64,000 nucleotides of DNA from an uncultured Gammaproteobacteria bacterium (GTDB taxonomy: Bacteria > Patescibacteriota > Microgenomatia > UBA12405 > JAHJSD01), in assembly GCA_964498425.1 (NCBI GenBank), contig CAZCGQ010000001.1, positions 163,063 to 227,062 on the forward strand, read 5' to 3'. The translations under genes and the position numbers were made by a program. This document shows, piece after piece, positions 28,468 to 55,686 of this stretch (the stretch's first letter is position 1; every line of letters starts with the position of its first letter). Under the pieces are notes generated by a model. It saw only the letters and a list, made by a program, of their open reading frames with translations. It did not search any database and was not told the origin of the DNA.

Positions 28468-28503
28468 CTGGCGACATTTTACAATGATGTATAATTTAAT
28501 TCA

Positions 28504-31620: not shown

Positions 31621-31621
31621 A

Positions 31622-33229
31622 CTACCGCTTCTCAAAAATGATCACCTTGGGATGGTCGTATACGGTGAAGGCTTCTTCGGATGGATCATCGTTTAGCTCA
31701 ATGCCAAAAAAACTAGGATAGGAGGTTATTTCGGCTACTTCTTTAAACGTCCCTTGTCCTGAAGGAGGACTAAGTTCACCAGCAAACAATTGCTGATAAA
31801 ATCTTGTTGTTCGAGGATAGCGTTCGGGAACAGTAGGAATTGAGCCGTAGAGTCGACTTGAGGAAAGGATAATATAGTCAATTTTTTCTAACTGCTGATT
31901 CATCTTCTGCCATTTACGATCAGTATCTGCCCCAAAAAGTTCAAGGGTTAACTGCTCATATCGAGAAGAATTTTTACCGTTAAGGGGCAACGGCAAACAG
32001 TCGTCCCAATGCTCACAGGAAATGGTTGATCCTGCCGGAATGTTTTCATAAATCCACTTTGATGCCTTAACACGGCTGTGCGGTTGAGAATAGATTGCCA
32101 TAAACATTAGCGGATAAATAAATAAATTCGAAATGATAATCGCCTTACTTTTTTTTGACCGACTAGCTAACCAACCACCAGCAATAAGGGCCATAAAGGG
32201 ATAAACTGGTAGGAAATATCTCATATTTTTTGAAAACTGAACCCCCTGGAAAATAAATAACATAAAAATCCAAATCAAATAAACTATCATGTTGTCATTC
32301 TGGAGCCATTTTAATGGCTGAAGAATCCCCGGGGGTTCCTTCGTCATACTCAGGATGACGCTAAAAATAGCAATAATTGTTACTATCCCCAGGGGAACGC
32401 CAAGCCCCCAGAAGAAAATATTTTTGGCTGGAAAAATCAAAGGTTTAGTTTTAATCCACTGTATCCCTGGAGGATAGCCGGTATCTTTGCCTCCAAAACT
32501 GTTTAATTCCTTGATGTCGGCAATAAACTCCGGGTTTGGTTGAAACAGGCCGACGAAGGAATAAGGGTTGAAGATGCGTGCAGTAGCACTAGTAATAAGT
32601 AATAAGTAAACAGTAAACAGTAGTAATTTTTTAAAATTTCCTGAATATCTTTTGAGAAAAACCAAACCGATGATTGGTAAAAACAATACAGCGGTGATTT
32701 TGCATGACAAAGCCATACCCATAAACAAGCCGACGAATAAGGGTGATAGGTTTAAAGCGGCGTAAAAGGAGAGAACTAAAAAGAAGTTTAAAAAGGGATC
32801 AACGGCAAAGAAGTGGGAAAGCTGAATTGGAAGAACCATTAATGAGTAAAGTAAACTTGGCCAAACTTTTTTGGAAATTAAATACAACAGAATTATTACC
32901 CCGCCGTCAGCAAGAGCAGCTAAAACCCGGCCGACTAAATTAAAATGAGCATAGTCGTGGAAGCCGAAAATTTGACTAACTGCCTTAGTTAAAAAAATCG
33001 GCAGTGGGCCGTAAACAAAAAAACCGAAATCGTTATTGCGTGGGTTTAACGGAGATTTTCTAGTATTAAAATATTCGCCAATATTTTCCGGCCAATCGAT
33101 TGCCGTTCCAACCATCGTTAAAAAACGTTCATCGGGATGAAGGTGATGACCCTGATCCCAATTTAAACCGTATATTCTCAGACTTAAACCAATTGCTAAA
33201 ATCAAAACCAAAAGCAATTTCTTTCGCAT
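31622..33229 (-). CDS. GT-C fold membrane glycosyltransferase (paralog 1; N-terminal WxxxHxHPDE motif)
   Basis: N-terminus LNWDQGHHLHPDERF. Polytopic. Shares a TM segment (KKLLLFTVYLLLIT) with the YYY protein and is a paralog of 34027..35556. Confidence 0.55.
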   Translation of the reverse strand: MRKKLLLVLILAIGLSLRIYGLNWDQGHHLHPDERFLTMVGTAIDWPENIGEYFNTRKSPLNPRNNDFGFFVYGPLPIFLTKAVSQIFGFHDYAHFNLVGRVLAALADGGVIILLYLISKKVWPSLLYSLMVLPIQLSHFFAVDPFLNFFLVLSFYAALNLSPLFVGLFMGMALSCKITAVLFLPIIGLVFLKRYSGNFKKLLLFTVYLLLITSATARIFNPYSFVGLFQPNPEFIADIKELNSFGGKDTGYPPGIQWIKTKPLIFPAKNIFFWGLGVPLGIVTIIAIFSVILSMTKEPPGILQPLKWLQNDNMIVYLIWIFMLFIFQGVQFSKNMRYFLPVYPFMALIAGGWLASRSKKSKAIIISNLFIYPLMFMAIYSQPHSRVKASKWIYENIPAGSTISCEHWDDCLPLPLNGKNSSRYEQLTLELFGADTDRKWQKMNQQLEKIDYIILSSSRLYGSIPTVPERYPRTTRFYQQLFAGELSPPSGQGTFKEVAEITSYPSFFGIELNDDPSEEAFTVYDHPKVIIFEKR

Positions 33230-33370
33230 AGCTTAATTTTAGCAAAATCTTAAGCACTAATTCCTAAACTCTAAATAATACCCAATTATCAAAGCCCAAA
33301 TATTTAAACTAATCCGGACATTTTTATTTTGAATTTGTTTAGGATTTAGATATTAGAGATTAGAATTTGA

Positions 33371-33394
33371 TTCTAGAATATCGATATTCTAGAA
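33371..33394. promoter_or_regulatory. 24-bp perfect palindrome TTCTAGAATATCGATATTCTAGAA
   Basis: Read directly from the sequence. Ends 6 nt before the UDG ATG at 33401. Confidence 0.5.
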
Positions 33395-33400
33395 TGTCTC

Positions 33401-34030
33401 ATGACCGTTCAAGAAGAAATCGACAGTCTGGCTGAAAAAATCAGTAAGTGTCAAAAATGTCCTCTCTATAAGTCCGCCACTCAGGCGGTTCCCGGTGGGC
33501 CTAATCCTGACACAGATATTGTCTTTATTGGCGAAGCTCCCGGTTACTGGGAAGATCAACGCGGTGTTCCCTTCTGCGGTCGTTCCGGCGACTTGCTCAA
33601 CAAATTACTTCAGAGAATTAATCTCGATCGAAAGGATGTTTTTATTTGTAATATTTTAAAACACCGGCCGCCAAATAATCGTGACCCAAGCCCGGAAGAA
33701 ATTGAAACTTGCACTCCCTGGTTAAAACAACAGCTGTTAATTATCGAACCCAAAATTGTCATCACCCTTGGGCGATTTGCCATGAATTATTTTATCCCCG
33801 ATGTCTACATTTCTAAAGTTCACGGTCAGCCTAAACAAATCCTTTGGCAAGATTTGGATTTACTCCTTTATCCCCTTTATCATCCAGCGGCTGGGTTAAG
33901 AAACGGGAGCGTTAAGGAGGATTTAGTTGAAGATTTTTTGAAAATTCCCAAGATTATCAGTGATGAGAGTGACATGGATATGAAGATAAAAGAGGAGAAA
34001 AAAGACCCCGAACAGGAAAGTTTATTTTAG
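33401..34030 (+). CDS. Uracil-DNA glycosylase, family 4 (Fe-S UDG)
   Basis: CQKCPLYKSATQAVPGGPNPDTDIVFIGEAPGYWEDQRGVPFCGRSG, HPAA and the conserved Cys residues. Confidence 0.85.
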   Translation: MTVQEEIDSLAEKISKCQKCPLYKSATQAVPGGPNPDTDIVFIGEAPGYWEDQRGVPFCGRSGDLLNKLLQRINLDRKDVFICNILKHRPPNNRDPSPEEIETCTPWLKQQLLIIEPKIVITLGRFAMNYFIPDVYISKVHGQPKQILWQDLDLLLYPLYHPAAGLRNGSVKEDLVEDFLKIPKIISDESDMDMKIKEEKKDPEQESLF

Positions 34031-35556
34031 AATTTTTTCCACAATCGAAGGGTGGGGTGGTCAAAAACTGTCCAGGTTTCTTCGGAATTAAGGTCACTAC
34101 CCAATAAAAATCGGCCAACCGGCCCAAAGGGACGAAACGTCCGCATTTTGCTAAAGCCTAAATCACCGGAAAACAAATCTTGGTAGAAACCTGCTGTTAT
34201 TGGATACCCTTTTGGTAAACGCAAATGGTTAGTAAACATCCGCCGCGACGGAGAAAGGAAATAATCCGCCTGATTAATTGCAGATGATAATTTTTCTTGT
34301 TGGTCTTCTTCTAAATCAAGGTGGTAAAAATCGATATTAATTGTTTCGAATTTGTCATGATTAAGCTCCGGCAGGTCAATTATATTACCACCTTCATAGA
34401 CTATTGTTGAACTTTCAGGCAAATTTTCATTAATCCATTGACAGGCTTGGATGCGGATATCCGGTTGAAAGTAAATTTTCATAAATAATATGCCGGGGAG
34501 AATTAAAATGAATATAGCAACTAGTAATTGGTAACCGGTAATTGATAATTTCTTAAGAGAAAAAACAATGAATAAAACTAGGAAAGGAAGAATCGGGGTG
34601 ATAAACCTAGTCCATTTGGCAAACAATAATGAATTGAAAATAAACCAAGGGAGAAATGTAGAAGCTAGAAGATAGAAATTAGAATTTAGAATTTTGAATT
34701 TCCTTTTTTTGAATACGTAACTCGTAATCCGTAACCCACTAATCCCCAAACCCACTATTAAAAAAGTGAACATTGGGAGACCAAGCACCCAAGGTAAGAC
34801 TTTCTTAAACTGAAATAAAAAGGGCTGAGTATTAATAAACTGCCTCATGTAAAAAACCCGGGTAAGTCCCCGAGCCAAATTGGATTCATATCTAAATGTC
34901 CCCCAAAAATCCTGAAACTCTATTAGGTAGTAAGGTGAAAAGAATAAAGTTAAAATAGTCAACGAAATACCCCAAGGAATAAGTCGGCGAAAACGTTTTG
35001 GTTTAATAACAATTGCTAAAAATGGACCAAGTAAAAACAAGATAGCGTTCAGTTTACTAGCCATGCCGATTGCCGCAATTAATGAAGAAAGAATTAAATA
35101 TCTAATCTTTTCAGTGTCATAATACTTAACCGCTAAATAAGCTAAGGATATTCCGACGAAGGTCAGCAGGCTCTCTGTCGTCCCAAAATGGGCCATTTGA
35201 ATTAACCCAGGTGTAAAAATTAATAATAAACTAGTTATCATTGCCCATTTCTGGTTTTTAAATATATTTTTAGCTAGTAAATAACCAACGATAACTGTTA
35301 AAACTGAAAAAATAGCTGACCAAAAACGCAAATGTAAATGCGAGGAAACCTTAACCAACTGCTTAGTTAGAAAGGACAGATATAATGGAAATTGACCGTA
35401 GGCAAAAAAATCTGGGTCAAAATTATCCCAGGAAAGTCGATCAACCGCCCAAGCCATATTATTTTCGTCAGGATGAAAATGAAAACCCCCGCCCCAATTA
35501 ATCCCCCATAACCGAGTTAAAAGTAGTCCAATAATAAGAAGTAACTTAAAGAACAT
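34027..35556 (-). CDS. GT-C fold membrane glycosyltransferase (paralog 2)
   Basis: N-terminus WGINWGGGFHFHPDENN. Polytopic. Paralog of 31622..33229. Confidence 0.55.
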   Translation of the reverse strand: MFFKLLLIIGLLLTRLWGINWGGGFHFHPDENNMAWAVDRLSWDNFDPDFFAYGQFPLYLSFLTKQLVKVSSHLHLRFWSAIFSVLTVIVGYLLAKNIFKNQKWAMITSLLLIFTPGLIQMAHFGTTESLLTFVGISLAYLAVKYYDTEKIRYLILSSLIAAIGMASKLNAILFLLGPFLAIVIKPKRFRRLIPWGISLTILTLFFSPYYLIEFQDFWGTFRYESNLARGLTRVFYMRQFINTQPFLFQFKKVLPWVLGLPMFTFLIVGLGISGLRITSYVFKKRKFKILNSNFYLLASTFLPWFIFNSLLFAKWTRFITPILPFLVLFIVFSLKKLSITGYQLLVAIFILILPGILFMKIYFQPDIRIQACQWINENLPESSTIVYEGGNIIDLPELNHDKFETINIDFYHLDLEEDQQEKLSSAINQADYFLSPSRRMFTNHLRLPKGYPITAGFYQDLFSGDLGFSKMRTFRPFGPVGRFLLGSDLNSEETWTVFDHPTLRLWKKF

Positions 35557-36472
35557 AAATTATTACAATAAGCATGAACCCCCAGATAAAAACGGTGACC
35601 AGTAAAGGAATATCCGAGGCTAGAATTTTTCCTGGTCGCTCACCTCTTTTTCTTTCCAAAACTAACTGAGAATAACGCATAATTCCTAAAATTACTGGAA
35701 AAATGGTAAGCATCAGCCACTTTCTTCCAATTAAAAAAGGGAAATTATTAACAAAAAAATCATGAATTTTGGGCTGGCTAAAATCAGCCGGTTGGGCCAA
35801 ATATGTAAATAGGGAATAGGATATCAAAGTTAAAACAGAAAAAATTGATACGTAAAAATTCAACAAGGCTTTTTGATATTTCCCCAAAGTTGGTCTTGTT
35901 TTACTCCCCTCTTTAACAAATTCGCTTCTTCGCTTACCACTAGCGATAAAGAGTGAAAGAAAAACTACGGTGAACATTAACCAAACTGGCAGATGAAAGC
36001 CAGTAGCAATTTCCCCTCCCAGTGCTCGTAAAATAAATGAAAATGAAATCCCAAAAATATCCAAAATTGCAATTTTCTTGAGAATAAAGCTGTAAATTAA
36101 ATGAAGGATTAAGAAAGCAATAATTAACAATACAAAACTAAAACTTAGGTAGAAAGCAATTGAAAGTCCCAAACTAAATAGAAAAATTGACCAAATTATT
36201 GCCTGCTGAGGTGTCACCGTACCTTTAGCTATTGGTCGATTTCTTTTTTGAGGATGACGACGATCATAAGGCGCATCAACAATATCATTAATTAAATATG
36301 AACCGGAAGAAAACAATGAAAATACTACAAAGGCAAGTAAAGATTCAACAACTACCTCCCCATTAAATAACTGACCGTTAAAAATCATCGCTGCAAAAAC
36401 GGCCAAGTTTTTTGTCCACTGATATGGACGCATTGAGACTACTAAGCCACGAATGGTCTTGACAGAAATCAT
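35546..36472 (-). CDS. UbiA-family prenyltransferase (polyprenyl-phosphate phosphoribosyl/glycosyl transferase-like)
   Basis: YLINDIVDAPYDRRH is the UbiA NDxxDxxxD motif. Eight to nine TM helices. Confidence 0.7.
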   Translation of the reverse strand: MISVKTIRGLVVSMRPYQWTKNLAVFAAMIFNGQLFNGEVVVESLLAFVVFSLFSSGSYLINDIVDAPYDRRHPQKRNRPIAKGTVTPQQAIIWSIFLFSLGLSIAFYLSFSFVLLIIAFLILHLIYSFILKKIAILDIFGISFSFILRALGGEIATGFHLPVWLMFTVVFLSLFIASGKRRSEFVKEGSKTRPTLGKYQKALLNFYVSIFSVLTLISYSLFTYLAQPADFSQPKIHDFFVNNFPFLIGRKWLMLTIFPVILGIMRYSQLVLERKRGERPGKILASDIPLLVTVFIWGFMLIVIIYVL

Positions 36473-36515
36473 CTTCTACATTTTAACCAAGAAACAGCAA
36501 GGAAACAAGGGCGGC

Positions 36516-37790
36516 CTAAATTTTTGAAGCTACTTCTTTACCGAGCTTTATTGAATAATTTACTCCCCTATCCCATGGAAAAATATGGTTTGCCGTGGCC
36601 CAGAAAAGCTGATCCGAAATTAAGGATATCTTCGGCTTTATCCCAGAATAACCTATTGGAATTATTGGCTGAGCATCAGAATATTTAAACAACTGATAAT
36701 CAATTAAATAATTCTCAAATGACGGGTTTAACCGCCTCAAATAAGGAGAAAATTCCTCTAAGACTTTTTCCTTGTCTTTTCTTAGGGTTGAATTTTCTTG
36801 GGGGTAATATCCACCAATATAAACAATATTTTCACCTCCATATTTATTAGCATCAACAAAATTTGTTTGCTCAACAATAACCAAAAATGGAAATTCCTTT
36901 TCTAAAACATTAAGCCAATAACTGTCTCCCGGAAGAAACTTTTTTTCTAATCTCATCACTAAAGCCATCGCTCCATTGGTTTTTAACTCTCGCCAACTTG
37001 AAACATTCTTATCGCGAAGCTCTTTCCAGGTTTGGATTAATTTTAAAGCTTGGGACAAAGGAATGGCAATTATTACTTTGTCAGCATTAAATTCTTTTTT
37101 TTCGGCAGACAAAATCCATTTATTTTCATTTTTTTTAATGCTAGTAATACGTGTCTGGAGATGTATTTTGTTTTCTTTCTTAATTTCCTCTCTCAACCTG
37201 TCAATTAAAACTGCTGTTCCTCCTTCAAAATAACCTAACCGCGCACTTCTTTTTTTTAACCTAGCCCATAACCAGGAAAAGGCAACTTCGTCTGTGTACT
37301 GGTGAAACTTATTCTCCATCAACGGCTGCCAAATTTTTTGCCAAGCCGATTGTCCAATTAGGCTCAAAAATAAACTCTTTGCTGAAAAGCGGTCATAAAA
37401 TGGTAAATAGGGCAAAAGCCTTAAAAGAAAAATAACACTGCCCATTCTCAGCTTATTAAAAGTAGATAAGTTCGGATATTTCATAATATCTAAAGGCTCA
37501 TCAAATGGATGGATATTTCCCTCAGAATACACTGAAGTTTGTACTTTCTTGAAAAATAACTTGTCTTCCAGCCCTAGTTCAGCGGATAAATTCTTAACAT
37601 ATTTGTCAGAAGTAAAATAATGATGAAAATATTTTTCCAACGGCCAATCCCATTTCTTTTCTTTATAACTACCCGCTAGGCCTCCAAGTGATTCCTCTGC
37701 TTCAAATAACTCAACTTCCTTCCCTTCTTTAGCTAAAGAATAAGCAGCTGTTAACCCGGTTATGCCTCCACCAATAACTGCAATCTTCAT
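36516..37790 (-). CDS. FAD-dependent oxidoreductase (amine-oxidase/UDP-galactopyranose-mutase-like fold)
   Basis: MKIAVIGGGITGLTAAYSL is a GxGxxG dinucleotide fold. LGGLAGSY...YFHHYFTSDKYV resembles the Glf/amine-oxidase family. Confidence 0.55.
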   Translation of the reverse strand: MKIAVIGGGITGLTAAYSLAKEGKEVELFEAEESLGGLAGSYKEKKWDWPLEKYFHHYFTSDKYVKNLSAELGLEDKLFFKKVQTSVYSEGNIHPFDEPLDIMKYPNLSTFNKLRMGSVIFLLRLLPYLPFYDRFSAKSLFLSLIGQSAWQKIWQPLMENKFHQYTDEVAFSWLWARLKKRSARLGYFEGGTAVLIDRLREEIKKENKIHLQTRITSIKKNENKWILSAEKKEFNADKVIIAIPLSQALKLIQTWKELRDKNVSSWRELKTNGAMALVMRLEKKFLPGDSYWLNVLEKEFPFLVIVEQTNFVDANKYGGENIVYIGGYYPQENSTLRKDKEKVLEEFSPYLRRLNPSFENYLIDYQLFKYSDAQPIIPIGYSGIKPKISLISDQLFWATANHIFPWDRGVNYSIKLGKEVASKI

Positions 37791-37797
37791 CTTGCCA

Positions 37798-38559
37798 TTA
37801 TAACCAAATTAACAAGCCGCTTAAAGTAATGATTGAGCCAACAATTATCATAATTTGTACTGGGAAATTTACACCCGCTTCAGGCAATTCTGCCGTAGTC
37901 GGAGATGGACCTAAGGCAATAGCCTCAGTCGGTTCGCTGGTTGGTGGCTGAGTTGAAACCTGGGTAGGAGTACTGGTTAAAACACTAGTTGGAGAACTAG
38001 TCGGATTATTTGTTGGGGTTATCGTTGGTGTCTCGGTTGGCGTATCCGTTGGAGCTGTTGTCCCGGTCGGAGTTATCGTTGGGGTCTCAGTCGGCGTATC
38101 TGTCGGAACCTCCGTCCCGGTTGGGGTTGTCGTTGGTGTCTCGGTTGGGGTCTCAGTCGGCGTATCTGTTGGAACCTCCGTCCCGGTTGGAGTTATCGTT
38201 GGTGTCTCAGTCGGCGTTTCTGTCGGAACCTCCGTCCCGGTTGGAGTTATTGTTGGTGTCTCAGTCGGCGTTTCCGTTGGAGTTAAAGTTGGAATGGTAA
38301 ACTCCAAACGGCAAGATGGAATATCTCTAGTTGTCTCCTCAAACACCGCTGGTACTTTTTTAGGAGCTGTTGGTGCAATCGGTTCCTGTCTCAACTGATA
38401 AAGTTTGATTGCACTTAAAATTGCAATTACCGCTAAAACAATTGTTGAGCCAATCAAGGCATATAACTTCCATCTTGGACCCGCTTGATTATCTTTTAAA
38501 CCGGATTCTAATTTTGGTACTTCATTTTCTTCAATCATTTCCAACCAAACTGAGGACAA
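37798..38559 (-). CDS. Thr/Pro-repeat surface protein (TETPTITPTGTEVPTDTP tandem repeats) with N- and C-terminal hydrophobic anchors
   Basis: Direct nucleotide and protein tandem repeats. The C-terminal tail is ELPEAG followed by a TM helix. Confidence 0.6.
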   Translation of the reverse strand: MSSVWLEMIEENEVPKLESGLKDNQAGPRWKLYALIGSTIVLAVIAILSAIKLYQLRQEPIAPTAPKKVPAVFEETTRDIPSCRLEFTIPTLTPTETPTETPTITPTGTEVPTETPTETPTITPTGTEVPTDTPTETPTETPTTTPTGTEVPTDTPTETPTITPTGTTAPTDTPTETPTITPTNNPTSSPTSVLTSTPTQVSTQPPTSEPTEAIALGPSPTTAELPEAGVNFPVQIMIIVGSIITLSGLLIWL

Positions 38560-39644
38560 ACCTCAGCCTCAACAACGTAATTAGTAAATTCATCAAACTC
38601 ATCATAAAGAAGATAAAAACCATACTCGTTGGACTGCTCCGTTTCTATCCACGTTCCATCGTTAACTTTAAATCTGGCTTTAGCCATTCCATCCGGATGA
38701 TTAGTCTCTCCGTTAGCAACTAGATAAACCTCCTGATCATAAACCAACAAAGGCTCGACTAACAAGCCCGATTGATCAACAATTGGCGTCCAGTCTTTAT
38801 CATAAATTGCTGCTTGGGTACATCGACAGTCATAAGTAGGCGTATTTGTCGGGGTAGGGGTAGGTGACGGAGTTAAGGTCGGAGTAATTGTCGGCGTTAA
38901 GGTTGCAGTCGGAGTTGGGGTCATTGTAGGCGTAGCTGTTGATGTTGGAGTCGCAGTTGGACTTGGCTGACATTCTTCCCAATCTTGACCATCTTCCCAC
39001 GTACAATTCCAAACATGCTGACCATCAACTAACACATCTTGTTGAGTATTTCTACATCTGTATGTTCCATCCCAATATGGAGCATTAGGATAATCCTCGG
39101 CTTGCGGATCATATCCAGGTCCTTTTTCATAACATTCTGTCCAGCACTCATCTTCACTCGGCTTCCCTTCGCAGCAATGACAGGGCAAGTCACAACTATC
39201 CCCGCCAGAACAATCATCACATTTTTGACAATTACCGTTGGTTTTTGTACCTCGACAAATATCTAAAGACCTTGCGCTGGCACTACAATCATCATTACAG
39301 TCATATTCCGCCTTACGGCCACTGCAATCAAATTCACAATCCTGGCTGGGATTACAATCACTACCCCCTGGACAATTTTCAGAGGGATTCTGACAACGAC
39401 CTAAGGTAGAACAAAAAGTCAAACCAGACATACAAGTACCGCAGCAATTGGGATTATCATTACACGAATTTTGATCACATTTGCCTTCGTGCCAACCACC
39501 ACAAGGACAAGACTCAGCAATATCTCCATGCGTCGCCCCACGTCTAGTTTCTTGCCCCTGCCTGACAAGATAAATACCAGCCCCTAGAGAAGAAATCAAT
39601 AATAAACCAACAGCAATAAGCCAATATATTTTGGAAGTTCTCAT
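38535..39644 (-). CDS. Cysteine-rich (~40 Cys) secreted/anchored protein with a TP-rich linker and a C-terminal globular domain
   Basis: N-terminal TM or signal, CxC/CC-dense region, a PTPT linker, and a C-terminal domain YDCRCTQ...EVCPQFGWK. Confidence 0.6.
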   Translation of the reverse strand: MRTSKIYWLIAVGLLLISSLGAGIYLVRQGQETRRGATHGDIAESCPCGGWHEGKCDQNSCNDNPNCCGTCMSGLTFCSTLGRCQNPSENCPGGSDCNPSQDCEFDCSGRKAEYDCNDDCSASARSLDICRGTKTNGNCQKCDDCSGGDSCDLPCHCCEGKPSEDECWTECYEKGPGYDPQAEDYPNAPYWDGTYRCRNTQQDVLVDGQHVWNCTWEDGQDWEECQPSPTATPTSTATPTMTPTPTATLTPTITPTLTPSPTPTPTNTPTYDCRCTQAAIYDKDWTPIVDQSGLLVEPLLVYDQEVYLVANGETNHPDGMAKARFKVNDGTWIETEQSNEYGFYLLYDEFDEFTNYVVEAEVCPQFGWK

Positions 39645-39647
39645 TGC

Positions 39648-41027
39648 CTAAATTAAAACTAAGCTAAAGAATAAAATTGCCGCACCACCAAACAAAATAA
39701 TTGTCGGTCCAAAGAAACCACTTTCTGGAACGCCAGATTCGGTTGACGGTTGACTTTTACGGGGGGGGGTTGTTGGCTCGGTAGTGGAAGTTGGTTCAGC
39801 CGTAGCCGTCGGGGTTGGAGCTTCGGTTGGGGTATTCGTTGGATTTATAGTTGGAGTTGCCGTTGACCCAGAGGGGGTAGCACTAAACGCTGGACCACCT
39901 TCACCCGTTTGTGCTGCCAAAACAAAAGTTCTTACAAAGGTTTCAACTCCCCCTGTATCCGGGTTGGTATATTCTACTGTTAACGTATGGGCTCCGGGTG
40001 TTAAGTTTTGTGGAGGGGCCCACTGCCACTCTCCATTAGAATCAATTTCAATTTCCGATTCGTAAGTAACTGGAGACTCCAAAGTAATCTCAACCTTTGC
40101 CCCTTTTGGGCCCTCTCCAAATATTTCTGGCTTTGGAATGGTTATTGTTTCACCATCGTTGGGGTTAATTATCTTAAACTCTTTTTCTTGGCCCAAATTT
40201 AAATTTCCAGTATCCAATTTTGAATCCATAGCCGGAGAAGGAGTAAGGTCGTTGTTCAATAAATTCTGATCCCCACTAGTAAAATCTTGACTTTCCCCTA
40301 AAATAATCGGAGGAACCGGGTCATCATTTTGAGTATAAATCGTAGCTGTTGCTCTTCCCCGCTGACCAGTTACCGCCAAAATATTTTCAATAATTTTTCC
40401 TTCTTCATAATTAGCTCTCATCGATAAATCCTCTGAATAAGCTTGGGCTAAAGGCACAACCCAATTACCCTTGTTGGTGACTAAGGCGGATAATTTGCTT
40501 ATCCCCGGAATATCTAAATATACAATCGCCCCAGCAGCTGGTTGACTACTGCCGTTTAGAACTGAGCCAGAAGCTAAATTTGCTTCTGGAGGTATACCTG
40601 ACGTCGACAAAGCGGTTTTAACCGAATAAGCTTTTAGCCTTTCTTCAAAAAACTCTTTACCACCCGAGTTTAGATAAAATTTATATTCAGTGTCCGGGGA
40701 CAAATTGTTAATAACCACATAATGGGTATCATAATCACCCAACGTGCCCGGACTATCTCGAAAATCAGTAACCACTTTTCCATCTAAGCTTTCAACTTGA
40801 ACAAAGCCCTTTGTTTTTTCACCAGTTATCCAAGAGACTGTAAAAGAATTGCTGGTAATATTAGTTATCTCTACTTCCTGCGGAGTTATCCCCTTACTGG
40901 CTCTGGTTAAAAAAGAAGTGCCTTCTCGAAGAAGGGTTAGACTGCCTACCAGGCCTAAAACTAAGAAAATACCAAGAATAGTTGGGATCTTTTTCTCACT
41001 CATCAAGTTCACCTGATTCGGTTGCAT
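39648..41027 (-). CDS. FN3-domain surface protein with N-terminal anchor and C-terminal PESG + TM tail
   Basis: ITSNSFTVSWITGEKTKGFVQVE...DTEYKFYL is a fibronectin type III signature. The C-terminus is TP-rich and ends VPESGFFGPTIILFGGAAILFFSLVLI. Confidence 0.55.
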   Translation of the reverse strand: MQPNQVNLMSEKKIPTILGIFLVLGLVGSLTLLREGTSFLTRASKGITPQEVEITNITSNSFTVSWITGEKTKGFVQVESLDGKVVTDFRDSPGTLGDYDTHYVVINNLSPDTEYKFYLNSGGKEFFEERLKAYSVKTALSTSGIPPEANLASGSVLNGSSQPAAGAIVYLDIPGISKLSALVTNKGNWVVPLAQAYSEDLSMRANYEEGKIIENILAVTGQRGRATATIYTQNDDPVPPIILGESQDFTSGDQNLLNNDLTPSPAMDSKLDTGNLNLGQEKEFKIINPNDGETITIPKPEIFGEGPKGAKVEITLESPVTYESEIEIDSNGEWQWAPPQNLTPGAHTLTVEYTNPDTGGVETFVRTFVLAAQTGEGGPAFSATPSGSTATPTINPTNTPTEAPTPTATAEPTSTTEPTTPPRKSQPSTESGVPESGFFGPTIILFGGAAILFFSLVLI

Positions 41028-41382
41028 TGGGAGTTGAAGTAATTGTTAAACTTGGTTCACCGGATGGGGTTGATTCAGCTACTTCTTGATTACCCGCTGG
41101 ACTGGATTCAGGGGTAGGAATAGCGGTTGGTTCCGCCTTCAACAACTCGTTTACTTCTTCAAGTTGATATTCTTTTTTTTGTTCAATTGTTGATAAAACC
41201 TCGTCATTTAATTCCGGCTTCAGCGGCGTTAGTAATTGATCTACCCCCTCAATTCTGTCCCGCCTGACCAATTCCCGATAACTGTTCAAGGCAACTAGTA
41301 ATAAAGCCGTTAATAAAGTGAATCCAGCTATCCAAAAAACCCGGTTATTAATTATTGTTTTCTTGTCCATAAATATTTTCAA
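40996..41382 (-). CDS. Small membrane-anchored protein with an acidic/TP-rich tail, function unknown
   Basis: A single N-terminal TM helix. Directly downstream of the pilO-like gene. Confidence 0.3.
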   Translation of the reverse strand: MKIFMDKKTIINNRVFWIAGFTLLTALLLVALNSYRELVRRDRIEGVDQLLTPLKPELNDEVLSTIEQKKEYQLEEVNELLKAEPTAIPTPESSPAGNQEVAESTPSGEPSLTITSTPNATESGELDE

Positions 41383-42016
41383 ACCAATAATGGAATTCCC
41401 CGTTTAGAAAAAAGGTTAATGAGGTTAAGGCCGCCTCTTTGTCTTTGCTTAAACCAATTTGATAGTTATTAATCTCCATCCACCGGCGGACTAAATTAAT
41501 TAAACGAATAAATTCCTTTATTTCATCATATTCACCTTTGGTTGAAAAATTAAATTTTAGACCGGAAAAAGATGTACTAGGATTAATCATATTTTGGATA
41601 TGATCGACACTTAGTTGGTTAATCGGTAAACTGCTTTCATTAGCTGCCCCAGCTACCTGGGCTACTCCTTGACCAATGGCAAATTCTGAAGGTAAATAAC
41701 TTTCTAATATCTGTCTATTCCCCTGCACTAAAGCAAACTCCTCTTGAGCAATAATAATCGAATTAATCTTTTTTTGCATTTTCTGAGTAAGTTCTTTTTT
41801 TTCATTTATTTCTCCAATTAATCCTGATATCGTAACTACGGCCGGTCTAATTGCAAAAACTATAAAGAAGGCAACGGAAAACACGGTAATGATTACCTCT
41901 AGATATTTCCAACTCTCTTTATTCTCGGCATACTCCTCCAGTGAGGTATTAACCTTGTCCTGATACTTTTTAAACTGATTAGCTATTTGTTCCTTCTTGA
42001 GCATTGTCTTTGTCAA
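41348..42016 (-). CDS. PilO-like pilus assembly protein (bitopic)
   Basis: Short cytoplasmic N-terminus, one TM helix, a coiled coil and a periplasmic domain. Follows the PilN-like gene. Confidence 0.3.
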   Translation of the reverse strand: MTKTMLKKEQIANQFKKYQDKVNTSLEEYAENKESWKYLEVIITVFSVAFFIVFAIRPAVVTISGLIGEINEKKELTQKMQKKINSIIIAQEEFALVQGNRQILESYLPSEFAIGQGVAQVAGAANESSLPINQLSVDHIQNMINPSTSFSGLKFNFSTKGEYDEIKEFIRLINLVRRWMEINNYQIGLSKDKEAALTSLTFFLNGEFHYWFENIYGQENNN

Positions 42017-42560
42017 AAGCGAACTTTACAACAAATTGAATTGTCATTCCTCCTTTTCCCTCCTCTTTTTCAATTGTCCCGATCTGAACAGTAGAAATGC
42101 TGGGATTAGCAATTAACCGATCAATAAATTCCGCTAACCCAGCTTCCGAAAAAATTTGAGCCTTTAAACTTGCTTTTATTCCTTCTTTTTCCTTAGAATA
42201 TCTAAAGTCAGTTAAAAGCACATCCGTTGGTAAGCTGGCAGCAACAACATCCAATGCTTCTACCGGCAAATATTTTTCCTCTGTTCCCTCAGAAATTTTA
42301 TTTAATCTTTTTTGGAAATCTCTAAATTCCCTTTCAAAGGTTTGGGTACTTGTTAAAATCGCTTTTTGTTGTCTTATCCTTTCCGACAAATCCGAGTTCT
42401 TTCTATCCAACCAAAATCTGGACAAGAAAGCACCAATCACAATTAACTCCGTAAAAATGACAATGTAACGACCAACCGAAAGAATCCATTTGACAAATTT
42501 GCCAGCAACAATTTCTACAGCATTCTCTTCGGGTAGTAAACTTATTTCTTTCTTAGGCAT
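41979..42560 (-). CDS. PilN-like pilus assembly protein
   Basis: The N-terminal KEISLLPEE matches the conserved PilN INLLP motif. A TM helix at ~30-50, then coiled-coil and periplasmic regions. Confidence 0.35.
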   Translation of the reverse strand: MPKKEISLLPEENAVEIVAGKFVKWILSVGRYIVIFTELIVIGAFLSRFWLDRKNSDLSERIRQQKAILTSTQTFEREFRDFQKRLNKISEGTEEKYLPVEALDVVAASLPTDVLLTDFRYSKEKEGIKASLKAQIFSEAGLAEFIDRLIANPSISTVQIGTIEKEEGKGGMTIQFVVKFAFDKDNAQEGTNS

Positions 42561-42610
42561 TAGTTCAGTATATTAAACTACACTATTGGTGTCAAAGCGG
42601 AAATTAATTT

Positions 42611-44263
42611 CTAGTCTACCTGCGGAGGTAGCTCATGAATAGGAAGAATATCCCGTGGCCAAACCAAAACTGACTTAGCTAATTTTACTATTGCTCTTGC
42701 CTCTTGAAGTTGAAAAGCTAATCCTAATCCTAAATAAACTAATATTCCCCCAAAACTACTTATGGAGGTTAAGCCAATTAAACCAGAAATTCTAGTTGTA
42801 TCAAAAACATACAAATCTAAACCACGAAGCAAAAGCCAAACACAAACAGTGGAAATAACACTCGAAAAAGTCATTTTAAGTAAAGGTGAAGTAATCCGGC
42901 TTAGGTTTTTAATTTCGAGTTTTTTAAACAGCAAAAACATCAAAATTAGAGATTGAACAACACTACTAATGCTTGTTGCTAAAGCTAAAATAATTACATC
43001 TACTTGGGAAAAAATACTTCCACCAACAGCAATGATGATAAAAACAATCAGCGACACCCATGAAACTATTAGGGGGGTCTTCGTATCCTGAAAAGCGTAA
43101 AACCCTCTTCCTAAAATATCATTGATTGTACCCGAAACAACCAGTGGAACTAAAAAAGCAATGACCTGACCAGTTACTAAAGTTGCTTTCCAAGGAAATT
43201 CTCTGGCTCCGTAAGCCAACCTTACTAACGGAATACGAAGAATGAGAAATATTGCTGCTGTTGGCAGAGCCAAAAAAATTGCTTGAAGAAAGGAACCAAA
43301 CAACGTTTCTTTATATCTTGACATTTTTTTTCTGCTTGCTTCTTTTGATAAAACCGGCAAAGAAGCTTGCCCAATAGTAACCCCAAAAACTCTAGAAAAA
43401 AAACTGGTTAACCGCTGACCAAGATAAAAAAGAGAAAGATAGCCAACTGTTAAGCCACTACCAATAATTAAAATTATAGTCGCCTGAAGCTCTTTTATGG
43501 CTAGGGCAATTGTCCGCGGCGGCATTAGAGTAAGAATTTTTTTCACTCCGGAAAGCTTCAAATCGATGACTGGGAAATACCTAAAACCTAATTTAATAAC
43601 TAAGGGTAACTGAATTAGAAAGTGAAGAACTGCCCCAATCAAAACACCTAATGTCGGCCCCCATATTCCTAAAACCGGGGAAAGTATTTGAATACCTAAA
43701 ATAATCCCCAGGTTATAAATCATTGGAGCTAGTGCCGGAACTAGAAACCGTTGATTAGTCTGCAGGATAGACGTCAAAAAATTGCTGAAAAGAAAAAACA
43801 TTTGAGAAACAACTATTATTTTCATTAACTGACTCATTAGTGAAATTTGCTGACTGGTAAACCCAATGGCAACTAAAGAAGATAACGGCTTGGAAAAAAT
43901 AATAATCACACTGCCTAGAATTAAGAATACAATTAACAACAAGTTCAAAACGGAAGAAGCAGTAACATAGGCCTCTTCTTCATCTTTTTCTATTTCTTCG
44001 CCAAAAACAGGAATAAAGGCCGCCGACAATGCCCCCAAAACCAGAAGTTGAAAAACAATATCGGGTATTCTAAAGGCAGCATTATATGCGTCCAACTGAC
44101 CAGGACAGCAAGCAAAAAACTTAGCATAGAGAAGCCTATCCCGCAAAATACCTAAAAAGGCTGATGCACTAAAGGCAAAACCTAAAATAGCTGCGGCTGA
44201 GAAAATACTGGATTGACGCTTTGAAAAAATTTTGGAGCCGTTTTTAAAAATGTCCTTTATCAT
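42611..44263 (-). CDS. murJ: Lipid II flippase MurJ/MviN family
   Basis: LGILRDRLLYAKF...DAYNAAFRIPDIVFQLLVLGALSAAFIPVF aligns with the MurJ N-terminal conserved region. Fourteen TM helices. Confidence 0.8.
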   Translation of the reverse strand: MIKDIFKNGSKIFSKRQSSIFSAAAILGFAFSASAFLGILRDRLLYAKFFACCPGQLDAYNAAFRIPDIVFQLLVLGALSAAFIPVFGEEIEKDEEEAYVTASSVLNLLLIVFLILGSVIIIFSKPLSSLVAIGFTSQQISLMSQLMKIIVVSQMFFLFSNFLTSILQTNQRFLVPALAPMIYNLGIILGIQILSPVLGIWGPTLGVLIGAVLHFLIQLPLVIKLGFRYFPVIDLKLSGVKKILTLMPPRTIALAIKELQATIILIIGSGLTVGYLSLFYLGQRLTSFFSRVFGVTIGQASLPVLSKEASRKKMSRYKETLFGSFLQAIFLALPTAAIFLILRIPLVRLAYGAREFPWKATLVTGQVIAFLVPLVVSGTINDILGRGFYAFQDTKTPLIVSWVSLIVFIIIAVGGSIFSQVDVIILALATSISSVVQSLILMFLLFKKLEIKNLSRITSPLLKMTFSSVISTVCVWLLLRGLDLYVFDTTRISGLIGLTSISSFGGILVYLGLGLAFQLQEARAIVKLAKSVLVWPRDILPIHELPPQVD

Positions 44264-44320
44264 CCCTGCCAGTATAACACACTCTTGCTAGCATTTAGCC
44301 TAGATGATAGAATAAGGTCC

Positions 44321-44629
44321 ATGCCTGTAACTAAGTCCGCCGCAAAGGCGCTGAGAAACCAGAAAAGAAAGAAAAAATATAATCTGAGGGTTAAAAAAAA
44401 GGCGAAAGAAGCCATAAAGAAGTATAAGGATAGCCCTAACAAGAAAAACCTTCAGACCGCTTATTCTGCAATTGACAAAGCAGCTAAACGAAATGTCTAT
44501 CATAAAAATAAGGCCGCAAGGTTAAAAAGTCAGCTGGCAAAAAAACTTCCTAGGAAAAAATCCTCTTCTAAAAAGAAAGCGTCGTCATCTAAAAAAACCG
44601 ACGCCGATAAAATGTCGAAGAAAAAATAA
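44321..44629 (+). CDS. rpsT: 30S ribosomal protein S20 with a Lys/Ser-rich C-terminal extension
   Basis: MPVTKSAAKALRNQKRKKKYNLRVKKKAKEAIKKY...NVYHKNKAARLKSQLAKK. Start set at the internal Met. Confidence 0.85.
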   Translation: MPVTKSAAKALRNQKRKKKYNLRVKKKAKEAIKKYKDSPNKKNLQTAYSAIDKAAKRNVYHKNKAARLKSQLAKKLPRKKSSSKKKASSSKKTDADKMSKKK

Positions 44630-44630
44630 A

Positions 44631-46046
44631 GTGACCAGCAAATACTATATCACTACACCGATATACTATGTTAATGATGTCCCCCACATCGGCCATACAT
44701 GTACGACAGTTACTGCTGATATTCTTGCCCGCTATCACCGGTTAAAGGGGAAAGAAGTATTTTTCTTAACTGGAACAGATGAACACGGGGCTAAAGTTGC
44801 CCAAGCCGCTGATAACAAAGATTTAACCCCTCAAAAATTTTGTGATCAAATATCAACCCGATTTAAAAAAACCTGGCAAAGTCTAAATATCAGCAATGAT
44901 TTTTTTATTCGAACAACCGACCCACGACATATAGAGGTTGCCGAGAATTTACTCAAAAAGATTTATAAAAATGGTGATATATACAAAGATGTATATCAAG
45001 GCCTCTATTGCATCGGCTGTGAAAAATTCTTGACCGAATCTGACCTTGAAGATGGGCACTGTCCCCTTCATCCTCCAGAACAAACAATCAAGCAGAAAGA
45101 AGAAAATTGGTTTTTTAAATTATCAAAATATGCTCCAAAATTGATTGAATTGATTGAAAACGATGAAACCAACTACATTTTTCCTGAAGGTAAAAGGAAA
45201 GAGGTTTTGGCTAAACTTAAAGCTGGTGTCCACGATATTTCCTTTTCTAGAGCGAATGTTAACTGGGGAATTCCCGTGCCCTGGGATAAATCTCAAACTA
45301 TTTATGTTTGGGTTGAAGCCCTAATTAATTATTACAGCGCTACTCAATTTCTAGAAAATAAAGAACAATTTTGGCCGGCCGATGTTCATGTCCTGGGCAA
45401 AGAAATCCTTTGGTTCCATACAGCAATTTGGCAGGCTATGCTTCTTTCTCTTGGCCTACCCCTGCCTCAAAAAACCTTTGTTCACAGTTTTTACATCATG
45501 AAAGATAGAAAAATGTCCAAATCTCTAGGTAATCTGATTACGCCTGAGGAACTAATTGCCAAATTCGGAGTTGACGGCAGCCGCTACCTGGTGGCGGCAT
45601 CTTTTCCGGCTCAAAATGACTCTAACGTTAGTCTCAGCAAATATCAAAAAATATACAATGCCGATTTGGCCAACGGCCTTGGAAATTTAGTTTCGAGAAC
45701 GGCTAATCTAGCTGAAAAAAATAATCTGGAAACTCCTCAAGATATTTCAGCCAAATTTTTCAATGGAATAGACGAATCAATAAATGATTTTAACCTTGCC
45801 AAAACACTTGATATCATCTGGAATACCGATAAAAATAGCGTCTCGGCAATAAATCAAAAGTTCACCAAAAAAAAGGTTTGGGAACTGCCTGAAAAAGAAC
45901 AAAAAAAGATTCTTCAAGAAGTTATAAGTGACATCCGACAAATAGCATATAATATCAAGCCCTTTATGCCAGCATCGGCTGAAAAAATCGAGGAAATTTT
46001 CTCAGGAAAAATAACTTCTCCTCAACCAATTTTTCCTCGTCTCTAG
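44631..46046 (+). CDS. metG: Methionyl-tRNA synthetase (minimal form without C-terminal tRNA-binding appendix)
   Basis: The HIGH motif (PHIGHTCTT), KMSKS, and the CxxC...CP zinc knuckle. Confidence 0.9.
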   Translation: MTSKYYITTPIYYVNDVPHIGHTCTTVTADILARYHRLKGKEVFFLTGTDEHGAKVAQAADNKDLTPQKFCDQISTRFKKTWQSLNISNDFFIRTTDPRHIEVAENLLKKIYKNGDIYKDVYQGLYCIGCEKFLTESDLEDGHCPLHPPEQTIKQKEENWFFKLSKYAPKLIELIENDETNYIFPEGKRKEVLAKLKAGVHDISFSRANVNWGIPVPWDKSQTIYVWVEALINYYSATQFLENKEQFWPADVHVLGKEILWFHTAIWQAMLLSLGLPLPQKTFVHSFYIMKDRKMSKSLGNLITPEELIAKFGVDGSRYLVAASFPAQNDSNVSLSKYQKIYNADLANGLGNLVSRTANLAEKNNLETPQDISAKFFNGIDESINDFNLAKTLDIIWNTDKNSVSAINQKFTKKKVWELPEKEQKKILQEVISDIRQIAYNIKPFMPASAEKIEEIFSGKITSPQPIFPRL

Positions 46047-46102: not shown

Positions 46103-47527
46103 GTGAAAATTGATCTAGATTACAAAATTTTTATTCCATTCTCTCTATTTTTATTATTGTTCCTACCCAGTCTTTTCGAGCCAATCAGCTATGGGGATGA
46201 ATGTATTTACCTTACCTTGGGTAACGCCTTTCGCCGGGGTCTAGTTTTTTATAAAGACATCCATGATAACAAACCTCCACTGCTCTATTTAACTGCCGCG
46301 ATCAGCCAAGGCCATCTTTTCTGGTTCCGGCTAATCTCACTGGCCTGGAATTTAATTCATCTCGGAATTATTTATGAATTAATCAGTAAATTGACTAAGA
46401 AAAAATGGCTTCCTGCCGCGGCTGGAATAATCTTCACCTTAGCGTTCTTAATTTTCGAAGGTCGCATCGCCAATGGGGAAAACTTCATGATGATGCCAGT
46501 AACCTTGGCTGTCTACTTGTACTGGTCAAACAAAAAAAATCTATCTACAAAGATTCTCACCCTTATGGGCTTACTATTTTCAGTCGGATTTTTATTTAAA
46601 ATTCCAGTTGGCTTTGATTTTACCGGAGTCGTTTTAGCTTTATTTCTATTAAAGCCTTCCCTCCAGCAAATTAAAAAAATATTTATCATGGCAATAAGCT
46701 TTGCGTTTCCAATAATCCTTTCTATTATTTATTACACTTTTAACGGGGCATTTACACCCTATGTTCGGTCAGCTTTAATGCAAAACATTGGTTATCTTTC
46801 CTCTTGGCAGGGCAGTAACCTCGGCTTGTACGTTCGATTTGGGCTTTTAATTGTCTTTGCCTTGGGATTAGCCGTGATCCGAAAAAAATTATCTCCACAA
46901 GTCTTGTTTTTCAGTTTATGGTTTATCTTCGGCTTATTTGGTGCCCTTCTTTCCGCCCGACCTTATCCGCATTATTTCATCGAAATTGTTCCAAGTTTAG
47001 CTATTTTAATTGCTCTTGCGCTAGATAATATCAATTTCAAAAATGTCGCTCCGGTAATTACTGCTTTTGGTTTAATCATCACCAGCTACATCTATTTTAA
47101 CTTCTGGTGGTATCCAATCTTGCCTTATTACAAAAACTTCACCAGTTATATTTTGGGCAGTAAGTCTAAAACAGAATTCATCAATTATTGGGGAGAAAGA
47201 ACGGTTGACAATTATCAGCTGGCAAAAAAAATTAAGCGAATTACTTCGCCAAAAGATAGGGTTTTTATTTGGGGCGAAGGCTCATGCGTTTATGCCTTAA
47301 GTCGCCGCCTACCTCCAGGCAGGTACACAGTAAATTATCACATTTACGACTTTAATGGCTATCAAGAAACAGCCAAAGCAATAGCTGAAACTAAACCTAA
47401 AGTTATTGTTGAAATGCATAGTGAAAATGAAAATTGGCCAAAACTTGACGAAATTATCTCCCAAAACTACTATCGACTACAGTCCCCAGACTTAAAGGAC
47501 AGAGTATACGTTAGATATAAAAAATGA
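46103..47527 (+). CDS. GT-C fold glycosyltransferase, ArnT/PMT_2-like (family 39/83)
   Basis: YGDECIYLTLGN...HDNKPPLLYL, the DE...KPPL motif of ArnT-type transferases. About 12 TM helices. Confidence 0.65.
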   Translation: MKIDLDYKIFIPFSLFLLLFLPSLFEPISYGDECIYLTLGNAFRRGLVFYKDIHDNKPPLLYLTAAISQGHLFWFRLISLAWNLIHLGIIYELISKLTKKKWLPAAAGIIFTLAFLIFEGRIANGENFMMMPVTLAVYLYWSNKKNLSTKILTLMGLLFSVGFLFKIPVGFDFTGVVLALFLLKPSLQQIKKIFIMAISFAFPIILSIIYYTFNGAFTPYVRSALMQNIGYLSSWQGSNLGLYVRFGLLIVFALGLAVIRKKLSPQVLFFSLWFIFGLFGALLSARPYPHYFIEIVPSLAILIALALDNINFKNVAPVITAFGLIITSYIYFNFWWYPILPYYKNFTSYILGSKSKTEFINYWGERTVDNYQLAKKIKRITSPKDRVFIWGEGSCVYALSRRLPPGRYTVNYHIYDFNGYQETAKAIAETKPKVIVEMHSENENWPKLDEIISQNYYRLQSPDLKDRVYVRYKK

Positions 47528-47547
47528 TAAAATAACCCACATTTGTC

Positions 47548-49047: not shown

Positions 49048-49424
49048 TGGCTGAGAAAAAGGGCTTACACTTATTAACTAAAATTGGCCACCTTTGGCTG
49101 AAGAAAAATATTCTTCGGGCATTAGTATTAACGCTAATTATAATTTTGGTTCAGATAGTTTTAATTGTCCTTTATTTCTCGCAATTACCGCCAAGTGTTC
49201 CTCTCTACTACTCGCGTCCGTGGGGTCAAGCACAGTTAGCCGAAGCCATCTACCTTTTCTTACTCCCTTCACTTTCCCTAATAATATTTGTCATTAATTC
49301 CCTACTCGCCTCGCTTTTTGTTGACCATAAAGAATTTTACAGCCACTGTTTGATTTGGGTAAGCACAATATTTTCTGTTTTTAATTTAATTACTTTAATT
49401 AAAATTCTCCAAATAACCCTTTAA
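49047..49424 (+). CDS. Small membrane protein (3-4 TM), possibly a GT2 accessory subunit
   Basis: Hydrophobic ORF, translationally coupled between the GT2 and the WecA-like gene. Confidence 0.35.
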   Translation: MAEKKGLHLLTKIGHLWLKKNILRALVLTLIIILVQIVLIVLYFSQLPPSVPLYYSRPWGQAQLAEAIYLFLLPSLSLIIFVINSLLASLFVDHKEFYSHCLIWVSTIFSVFNLITLIKILQITL

Positions 49425-55062: not shown

Positions 55063-55080
55063 TCCTGAACGGCCCACCCA
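55063..55080 (+). repeat. 18-bp direct repeat, right copy (attR-like)
   Basis: Exact match to 51709..51726. Confidence 0.6.
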
Positions 55081-55084
55081 CTCC

Positions 55085-55609: not shown

Positions 55610-55686
55610 CCTTTAACTCTTTACTATTAACTATTCACAATACTTATCCGAACATCAGGTCCAAACCCCGCCGATTAAGCCAGTTT

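Follow-up and report, generated by a model that had tools for sequence, protein, structure and literature searches.

The window analysed here, a continuous stretch of 64,000 nt, carries between 34 and 44 kb a single minus-strand gene string that runs from murJ to a GT-C glycosyltransferase gene and encloses homologues of pilN and pilO, two alignment genes of type IV pili, a gene for a small bitopic protein and three genes for predicted surface proteins. The lipid II flippase gene murJ (42611-44263) is followed by pilN (41979-42560; 193 amino acid residues [aa], starting with MPKKEISLLPEE), pilO (41348-42004; 218 aa, with one transmembrane segment [TM]), the gene of the small bitopic protein (40996-41370; 124 aa), that of a protein with FN3/Big_13 domains, hereafter the FN3 protein (39648-41003; 451 aa, ending with VPESGFFGPTIILFGGAAILFFSLVLI), that of a Cys-rich secreted protein (38535-39644; 369 aa) and that of a Thr/Pro-repeat, mucin-like protein, hereafter the TP protein (37798-38538; 246 aa, ending with ELPEAGVNFPVQIMIIVGSIITLSGLLIWL). 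From pilN to the FN3 gene, every start overlaps the previous gene by 8-26 nt (26 nt for pilO/pilN, 23 nt for small/pilO and 8 nt for FN3/small), while further 3' one finds gaps of 3 and 7 nt and, where the TP gene starts, a 4-nt overlap with the Cys-rich stop. The most likely starts of the FN3 and TP genes are position 41003 and the ATG at 38538 (rather than the TTG at 38559), respectively. Only between murJ and pilN is there a sizeable gap (50 nt), and within it lies the best sigma-70-like match of the interval 33900-44700 (TTGACA-17-TATACT, 11/12; 42567-42595, minus strand), which is a consensus match only. All genes described in the initial annotation were found, on the minus strand, including the repeats and the Cys-rich gene. 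The surface genes had been placed there directly downstream of murJ; in fact pilN and pilO come first and the three surface-protein genes after them, and the small TM protein encoded between pilO and the FN3 gene was not mentioned there.

The nearest homologues of the window proteins belong to the ultra-small Patescibacteria/Microgenomates, the closest being those of Candidatus Shapirobacteria. Many GTDB representative records carrying the operon (loci L005-L033) are titled 'uncultured Gammaproteobacteria bacterium'; these titles look like placeholder or wrong labels, since gene content and similarity to Shapirobacteria indicate Patescibacteria. Overall, about 120 Microgenomates loci were compared, among them 33 genome loci retrieved via the FN3 protein and 80 metagenome loci retrieved via PilN; Pfam labels were available for eight loci, and the other ~110 were scanned solely for the window's own proteins and for sortase. 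The order pilN-pilO-small-FN3 was kept in the 33 genome loci wherever the contig reached far enough, and in 38 of the 39 metagenome loci that did so. In 37 of 41 metagenome loci murJ lay directly upstream of pilN, and variant contexts, such as pilM upstream, were not encountered among the metagenome loci, a uniform synteny that is partly explained by a search pattern favouring close relatives. Distant Microgenomates, including Levybacteria, possess the same four genes after rpsT (encoding S20), with an FN3 protein identity of 27-31% and with murJ divergent. Given the divergent murJ of these lineages and the promoter-like site just 5' of pilN, pilN-pilO-small-FN3 forms a unit of its own. The murJ-rpsT pair is inverted between lineages (window 42611-44629 versus L003, L040, L041 and L042): in Shapirobacteria-like genomes murJ reads into pilN, and in Levybacteria-like ones rpsT does so, murJ being divergent. 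Genes for UbiA and GT-C enzymes lie 3' of the FN3 gene in nearly all loci, and those for FAD oxidase, SDR epimerase, PAP2, LCP and FemAB are sometimes found downstream of the core. The Cys-rich and TP genes, with that of the FAD oxidase, are confined to the window's subclade, where they stand as insertions in front of UbiA and behind the FN3 gene. The three-gene surface cluster proposed at first is therefore present in the window, but only its FN3 member belongs to the lineage-wide core, the other two being subclade insertions.

The window PilN scored 22.7 bits against PF05137, marginally under the cut-off of 22.8 bits, and the window PilO scored 21 bits against PF04350, under the cut-off of 22 bits. 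At family level, PF05137 was matched by 26 of 32 PilN orthologues and PF04350 by 27 of 34 PilO orthologues (best values of 8.3e-13 and 4.2e-11, respectively). Among PDB sequences, the PilN family profile matched Myxococcus PilN (3jc8_N, E=5.6e-4) and the PilO family profile Myxococcus PilO (3jc8_O, E=5.7e-9), with nothing else credible in either search. The comparison of both families by hhalign gave a probability of 72.8% and an E-value of 3e-5, a mutual detection that is consistent with the expected paralogy of PilN and PilO. The window PilN has a short cytoplasmic N-terminus with EISLLP, a single TM at about residues 25-51 and the subsequent PilN domain; in the family, the N-terminal E[IL]SLLP is nearly invariant, residues S7, L8, L9 and P10 being invariant or at least 90% conserved among 32 orthologues. 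This is the type of peptide that binds the cytoplasmic PilM, as established by work on the PilM:PilN pairs of Thermus and Pseudomonas. Both PilN/PilO assignments of the initial annotation, together with the INLLP-like motif it had recognized in PilN, hence passed the profile searches at family level, and on sequence grounds the alignment proteins of type IV pili have true homologues in the window PilN and PilO.

In an alignment of 31 orthologues, the small protein consists of a basic stub, a TM, a conserved 'LLxPIxPxLD..IE.R' segment and an acidic, Pro/Thr-rich disordered tail; no relative was detected in Pfam, in the PDB or by hhalign against PilO. The FN3 protein, with more than 120 homologues in Patescibacteria and Pfam matches to Pur_ac_phosph_N, fn3 and Big_13, is composed of an N-terminal TM, three Ig-like domains, a Pro/Thr-rich disordered stalk of ~60 residues and a C-terminal signal (39651-39731) in which VPESG is followed by FFGPT and a hydrophobic helix. 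Its AlphaFold2 (AF2) model (predicted local distance difference test [pLDDT] of 83.6) comprises a helix at residues 16-34, beta-sandwiches at 49-137, 150-250 and 284-370, a disordered Thr/Pro region and a second helix at 440-458; these numbers refer to the 459-aa open reading frame (ORF) from the upstream start at 41027, and 8 is to be subtracted for the 451-aa protein. With this model, Foldseek retrieved nothing beyond generic FN3/Ig tandems from the stalks of adhesins and receptors, and thus no functional lead. In the FN3 family, a conservation of at least 90% is reached by a K-x-IPT[IL]LG motif in the N-terminal helix (40900-41003 in the window) and by a nearly invariant Ala about ten residues past this helix. 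Such conservation exceeds the need of an ordinary signal peptide. A comparable stretch, 'LV+QxQETR+xA', follows the N-terminal helix in the family of the Cys-rich protein.

Among the 212 window ORFs of at least 60 aa, [LVIAP]PxxG with a hydrophobic tail at the ORF end was found only in the FN3 and TP proteins (VPESG and ELPEAG, respectively), in agreement with the two similar tails, [LV]PE[AS]G plus a helix without a basic tail, that had been noticed initially. The FN3 family consensus reads QPSTESG[VIL]Px[STAP]G[FN][LW]xPT, followed by a TM. In 104 of 119 FN3 homologues PxxG is positioned just before the C-terminal helix, with [VIL] in position 1 and [STA] in position 4, and Pro-Thr is found four to five residues after the motif Gly. 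This frequency, together with a gene order kept in about 120 independent loci, places the features of the region beyond chance. A basic tail is present in 33 of the 104 PxxG-bearing homologues: the window's closest clade has tails without basic residues, and those of the sister Shapirobacteria (VP[KR][ST]G ... YYKKS or FKKK) have the appearance of a classical three-part sortase signal. When ten tails were scored against sorting-signal models (E up to 10), two from more distant orthologues passed TIGR01167 (LPXTG_anchor; cut-off 15.9 bits), namely P0072 with 20.2 bits and P0073 with 18.2 bits. The signal of the TP protein (37801-37890) consists of ELPEAG, VNFPVQ and a hydrophobic helix, and most of its orthologues follow the consensus R[VI]ELPxAG[VF]xFP[SV]Q plus TM, with ELPEVG in L009. 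In both families a Pro stands four residues past the motif Gly, which suggests that the FN3 and TP tails are read by one shared recognition system. One FN3 subclade (L061, L062, L068, L071, L074, L078, L081, L082, L096, L098 and L106) carries LY[KEQ]SG and ends with YYY[RH]. The putative sortase-substrate peptides representing the motif variants are STESGVPESGFF, ELPEAGVNF and LYKSG. In these comparative data the C-terminal motifs seem to behave like sortase-type signals, so that the resemblance to LPXTG/PEP-CTERM signals put forward in the initial annotation holds for its sortase-type half, through positional conservation, basic tails in the sister clade and two tails passing TIGR01167, and is unsupported for its PEP-CTERM/exosortase half.

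The Cys-rich protein is built of an N-terminal TM, a Cys-rich head, a Pro/Thr linker and a C-terminal beta-sandwich domain of ~100 aa (38538-38843) that ends with GW[KR]; no C-terminal sorting signal was recognized on it. It contains 31 Cys, and not the ~40 estimated at first, 28 of which fall within the hypervariable region of residues 46-225 (38970-39509), making up 15.6% of that region. Its homologues occur solely in the nearest subclade, in the same position, and their heads differ strongly in length and sequence, few Cys columns being kept beyond the nearest relatives. A search of 1.84 billion proteins retrieved the conserved C-terminal domain from only 64 cluster representatives, nearly all of which carry it at the extreme C-terminus, with NPxLGW+ as its end, behind a variable head of mostly 4-9.5% Cys. 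The AF2 model (pLDDT of 56 overall) is unreliable in the head, while the C-terminal domain (pLDDT ~80) looks like a plain beta-sandwich; the fold search gave no significant match, with only weak FN3-like matches for the C-terminal domain. The protein may thus present a fast-evolving head, stabilised by disulfides, on a conserved domain for attachment or partner binding, and the family of hypervariable disulfide-rich heads is flagged here as a source of possible host-interaction factors. A thioredoxin-fold protein with a CPHC motif, secreted and fused to a multi-TM domain (56929-58104; 391 aa), is encoded 17 kb from the Cys-rich gene and adjoins a small cytoplasmic thioredoxin (the pair spanning 56929-58409). 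It is possible that this pair forms an extracytoplasmic thiol-disulfide system serving the disulfides of the 31-Cys protein.

The TP protein comprises an N-terminal TM, ~120 aa of TPTxT repeats and the C-terminal signal. The repeats are encoded by a tandem DNA repeat (38018-38294) with periods of 54, 66 and 120 nt (Tandem Repeats Finder scores of 250-373), and the 253-aa ORF counted from the TTG at 38559 contains 61 Thr and 39 Pro. Three of its orthologues (L011:7110-8186, L013:4992-5927 and L036:12713-13552) have small multi-Cys modules, e.g. ECWDRCECEEDCPEILDCIDGRCVNPECPNEENCLCP, among the Thr/Pro repeats; the window copy lost these modules and kept a single Cys. The match of the TP protein to Rv2743c/PspM was dismissed as a low-complexity or TM match, as were matches to S-layer and MGC-24 families. 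The GC content rises up to 0.456 at 38001-40000 of the window, against ~0.36-0.38 on either side; this is where the Thr/Pro-coding and Cys-rich genes lie, consistent with a compositional bias from ACN and CCN codons. Both the Cys-rich and the TP proteins are probably surface-exposed interaction or coat proteins.

Around this set, the identified genes of the string are related to wall and glycan synthesis. The murJ product matches Pfam MurJ (7.8e-65) and scores 234.2 bits against TIGR01695 (cut-off 235.55). Next to the TP gene lie, on the same strand, the genes of a FAD amine-oxidase-type oxidoreductase (36516-37790; PRK07233, 1.9e-118), a UbiA-family decaprenyl-phosphate phosphoribosyltransferase-like enzyme (35546-36472; NF008978, 209.4 bits against a cut-off of 207) and a GT-C/PMT_2 glycosyltransferase (34027-35556; PMT_2, 8.7e-15). 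The Pfam survey of the window also showed FemAB, many PMT_2/GT-C glycosyltransferases and DUF2298. Over 26338-37790 and 46103-50470 the string continues as what has the appearance of a decaprenyl-phospho-arabinose-like pathway, including the NF008978 UbiA enzyme, the PRK07233 FAD oxidase, at least three PMT_2/GT-C enzymes, a WecA/MraY-like transferase and DUF2298; the ORF at 31622-33229 resembles PMT_2/GT-C enzymes by eye only and has no Pfam match, and relatives (L043) add a SDR epimerase and a PAP2 phosphatase. The UbiA/FAD-oxidase/GT-C set recalls the logic of mycobacterial Rv3806c/Rv3807c/DprE1-E2/Emb-Aft, and its substrates for glycosylation could be the Thr/Pro stalks or a wall polymer. 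Further away, an AAA_21/AAA_15 (AbiEii-like) ATPase is encoded at 53265-54620 and a 407-aa protein without family match at 55687-56910, the interval 54621-55686 between them containing no ORF of at least 100 aa.

Building on the observed homologies, motif conservation, synteny and domain architecture, we propose, with confidence and doubt in about equal measure, that the locus encodes a putatively sortase-type (or derived) wall-anchored Ig-rod that is co-operonic with the PilN/PilO alignment pair, plus two variable surface proteins. The retention of a PilM-binding-type N-terminal motif suggests that the pair still serves a type IV pilus machine, whose PilM, PilB, PilC, PilT and pilins would be encoded elsewhere. 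The small protein and the Ig-rod would represent a wall-facing extension of the PilN/PilO complex, and the rod would be either linked to peptidoglycan, by a sortase whose gene lies elsewhere, or kept in the membrane by its C-terminal helix. In both cases the pilus platform would be fixed to a monoderm envelope by partners encoded in what are the pilP/pilQ gene positions of diderms, and the Thr/Pro stalks of the Cys-rich and TP proteins would be plausible substrates of the neighbouring GT-C glycosyltransferases. A bolder version, in which the small protein and the Ig-rod are the counterparts of PilP/PilQ in monoderm members of the candidate phyla radiation (CPR), forming a wall-spanning collar or tether that is covalently bound to peptidoglycan, joins the PilM-PilN-PilO platform to the wall and guides the pilus through it, we regard as doubtful. 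The proposal draws its support from the PilM-type motif, from the strict overlapping four-gene order across deep divergence and from the complete genome of a Microgenomates member, which has a single type IV pilus locus with PilM, PilB, PilT, PilC, PilD and pilins and with no PilN/PilO named (PMC7143001).

Several observations weigh against this interpretation. The absence of PilN/PilO from that published pilus locus could be an annotation gap, and the association of the FN3 and small proteins with PilN/PilO is deduced from gene order rather than from structures or interactions. Neither pilM, pilB, pilC, pilT nor pilin genes appeared in Pfam surveys of all long window ORFs, nor did any come up less than 10 kb from the module in the eight loci bearing Pfam labels; pilN and pilO are thus not encoded with pilM and other type IV pilus genes there, and the coupling to a pilus or secretion apparatus suggested by the initial annotation keeps the PilN/PilO homology in its favour and lacks such neighbours. 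What does surround the module are wall and glycan genes (murJ, UbiA, PMT_2 GT-C, LCP, FemAB and DUF2298). With regard to the tails, those of the window possess the pentapeptide before the helix expected of LPXTG-type signals (VPESG and LPEAG), but they end with ...FFSLVLI and ...GLLIWL, have no basic residues after the TM, did not reach the cut-off of TIGR01167 and matched no NCBIfam sorting-signal model at E up to 10. The TP orthologue of L001 reads ELLEVG, and the motif Pro seems to be dispensable in the FN3 subclade in which [VI]Px[ST]G is replaced by LY[KEQ]SG. The conservation of the FN3 tail, over ~17 residues, is far wider than a pentapeptide and unusual for a sortase signal. Finally, no sortase was detected in the window or in ~1.37 Mb flanking the module elsewhere, using a TLxTC regular expression and phmmer with a Staphylococcus aureus SrtA query sequence. 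In agreement with the initial annotation, which saw neither a sortase nor an exosortase in the window, no ORF there carries TLxTC, and no exosortase-like multi-TM gene was recognized in its Pfam survey. [quoted passage not shown]

The constant company of wall and glycan genes and the lack of pilus genes noted beside the module are what would be expected if the PilN/PilO-like pair had been co-opted into a pilus-independent envelope-biogenesis complex, which, together with the small and FN3 proteins, would scaffold or regulate wall or glycopolymer synthesis beside MurJ and the polyprenyl-phosphate-pentose/GT-C enzymes. This main rival must, however, accommodate a near-invariant E[IL]SLLP of the PilM-binding type, and the adjacency to murJ on which it leans has no operonic basis in other lineages, whose murJ is divergent; moreover, we know of no PilN/PilO role outside type IV filament machines, and co-option is in our judgement unlikely. 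With regard to the C-terminal segments, a second, compatible rival takes them as plain unprocessed membrane anchors in which PxxG has a structural role or one in glycosylation. The window tails without basic residues that fail TIGR01167, the conservation spanning ~17 residues around the motif and the replacement of Pro by Tyr or Leu in some lineages all fit such anchors, and C-terminal TM anchoring of secreted Ig-fold proteins has been proposed for CPR (bioRxiv 10.64898/2026.03.03.709456). Yet the position of the motif, the helix and the basic tail of the sister clade add up to a classical three-part sortase signal, two orthologues pass the LPXTG model, and sortase is reported as near universal in the Microgenomates (PMC6744442), so that we consider plain anchoring somewhat unlikely.

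Two further explanations have far less in their favour. A superficial likeness of VPESG to the VPDSG-CTERM variant (TIGR03778) and the missing basic tail of the window copies could point to PEP-CTERM/VPDSG-CTERM-like tails processed by an exosortase, archaeosortase or rhombosortase, but on the ten tails, at E up to 10, all sorting-signal matches were of the LPXTG type, apart from a sub-threshold MYXO-CTERM (TIGR03901, E=1, 9.8 versus 20 bits, in P0072). With no multi-TM exosortase-like gene recognized in the window and a monoderm-like envelope with FemAB and LCP genes, this explanation is hardly credible. Consecutive secreted proteins with Ig-like domains, two of them with LPXTG-like signals, might also be subunits of a sortase-polymerised pilus or adhesin locus of the Gram-positive type. 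We hold this to be very unlikely: no pilus-specific sortase is adjacent in the window or in the ~1.37 Mb of loci, the top 50 fold matches of the FN3 protein include no pilin structure (pilin and E-box motifs were not searched for), only one of the three genes is conserved lineage-wide, and the Cys-rich protein has no C-terminal signal.

Should the putatively wall-anchored Ig-rod next to PilN/PilO prove to be a wall-level component of the CPR type IV pilus, it would define a previously undescribed pilus envelope module of Microgenomates. In Patescibacteria, attachment to host cells and feeding on them are held to depend centrally on type IV pili, and the module provides concrete candidates for the way in which the pilus machine crosses, or is fixed in, the monoderm envelope of these organisms, as well as a way to test whether sortase anchoring and pilus assembly are linked. 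Its parts, namely PilN, PilO, FN3/Ig-like domains and an LPXTG-like signal, are of kinds already known. Full-text literature searches gave no description of two things: a fixed pilN-pilO-small-Ig-rod module standing apart from the pilus locus, and the derived signal [VIL][PY]x[STA]G-x3-P[TSV] plus TM, often without a basic tail.

Compared with the type IVa PilM-PilN-PilO(-PilP-PilQ) system (Myxococcus xanthus, PDB 3jc8; Thermus PilM:PilN), homology covers both the PilN and the PilO domain, PilN shares the N-terminal xxLLP, the single TM and the periplasmic domain, the two genes likewise adjoin and overlap, and two more envelope proteins are encoded in the pilP/pilQ gene positions. The differences are that murJ or rpsT (S20), and not pilM, stands upstream, that the third and fourth genes encode a small bitopic protein and a three-Ig protein with a sortase-type tail, neither of them related to PilP or PilQ, and that the organism is monoderm-like, without a secretin, the other pilus genes being located elsewhere. 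Monoderm cells with PilM, PilN and PilO and without a secretin are likewise represented by the type IV pili of Gram-positive bacteria (Clostridium, Streptococcus sanguinis) and of Saccharibacteria (PMC11623550). In these, pilM-pilN-pilO lie within the pilus locus with pilB, pilC and pilT, whereas here pilN-pilO are detached from it and joined to the Ig-rod and wall-glycan genes. The PamR, PamC and PamD proteins of the CPR Pam pilus, proposed filament tethers (Troman et al. 2026, bioRxiv 10.64898/2026.03.03.709456), are also secreted FnIII/Ig-fold proteins with a C-terminal TM and are specific to CPR; however, they are proposed to be membrane-anchored without sortase, and the pam operon contains PamA/B-type pilins and PapD-like chaperones with a C-terminal TM and has ATP synthase neighbours. 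The Pfam survey of the window showed no ATP synthase or chaperone-like genes, and identity with the Pam pilus was set aside on gene context, not on sequence. As in the LPXTG signal (TIGR01167), a Px[ST]G-type motif stands here before a C-terminal helix of ~20 residues and behind a Thr/Pro stalk, orthologues carry a basic tail and two pass the model. Unlike in that signal, Val predominates in position 1 and Ser or Ala in position 4, conserved residues reach further on both sides (QPSTESG upstream, F[LW]xPT downstream), the basic tail was lost in the window's clade, and one subclade has Tyr in place of Pro; a signal derived in this manner could improve the prediction of surface proteomes in these genomes.

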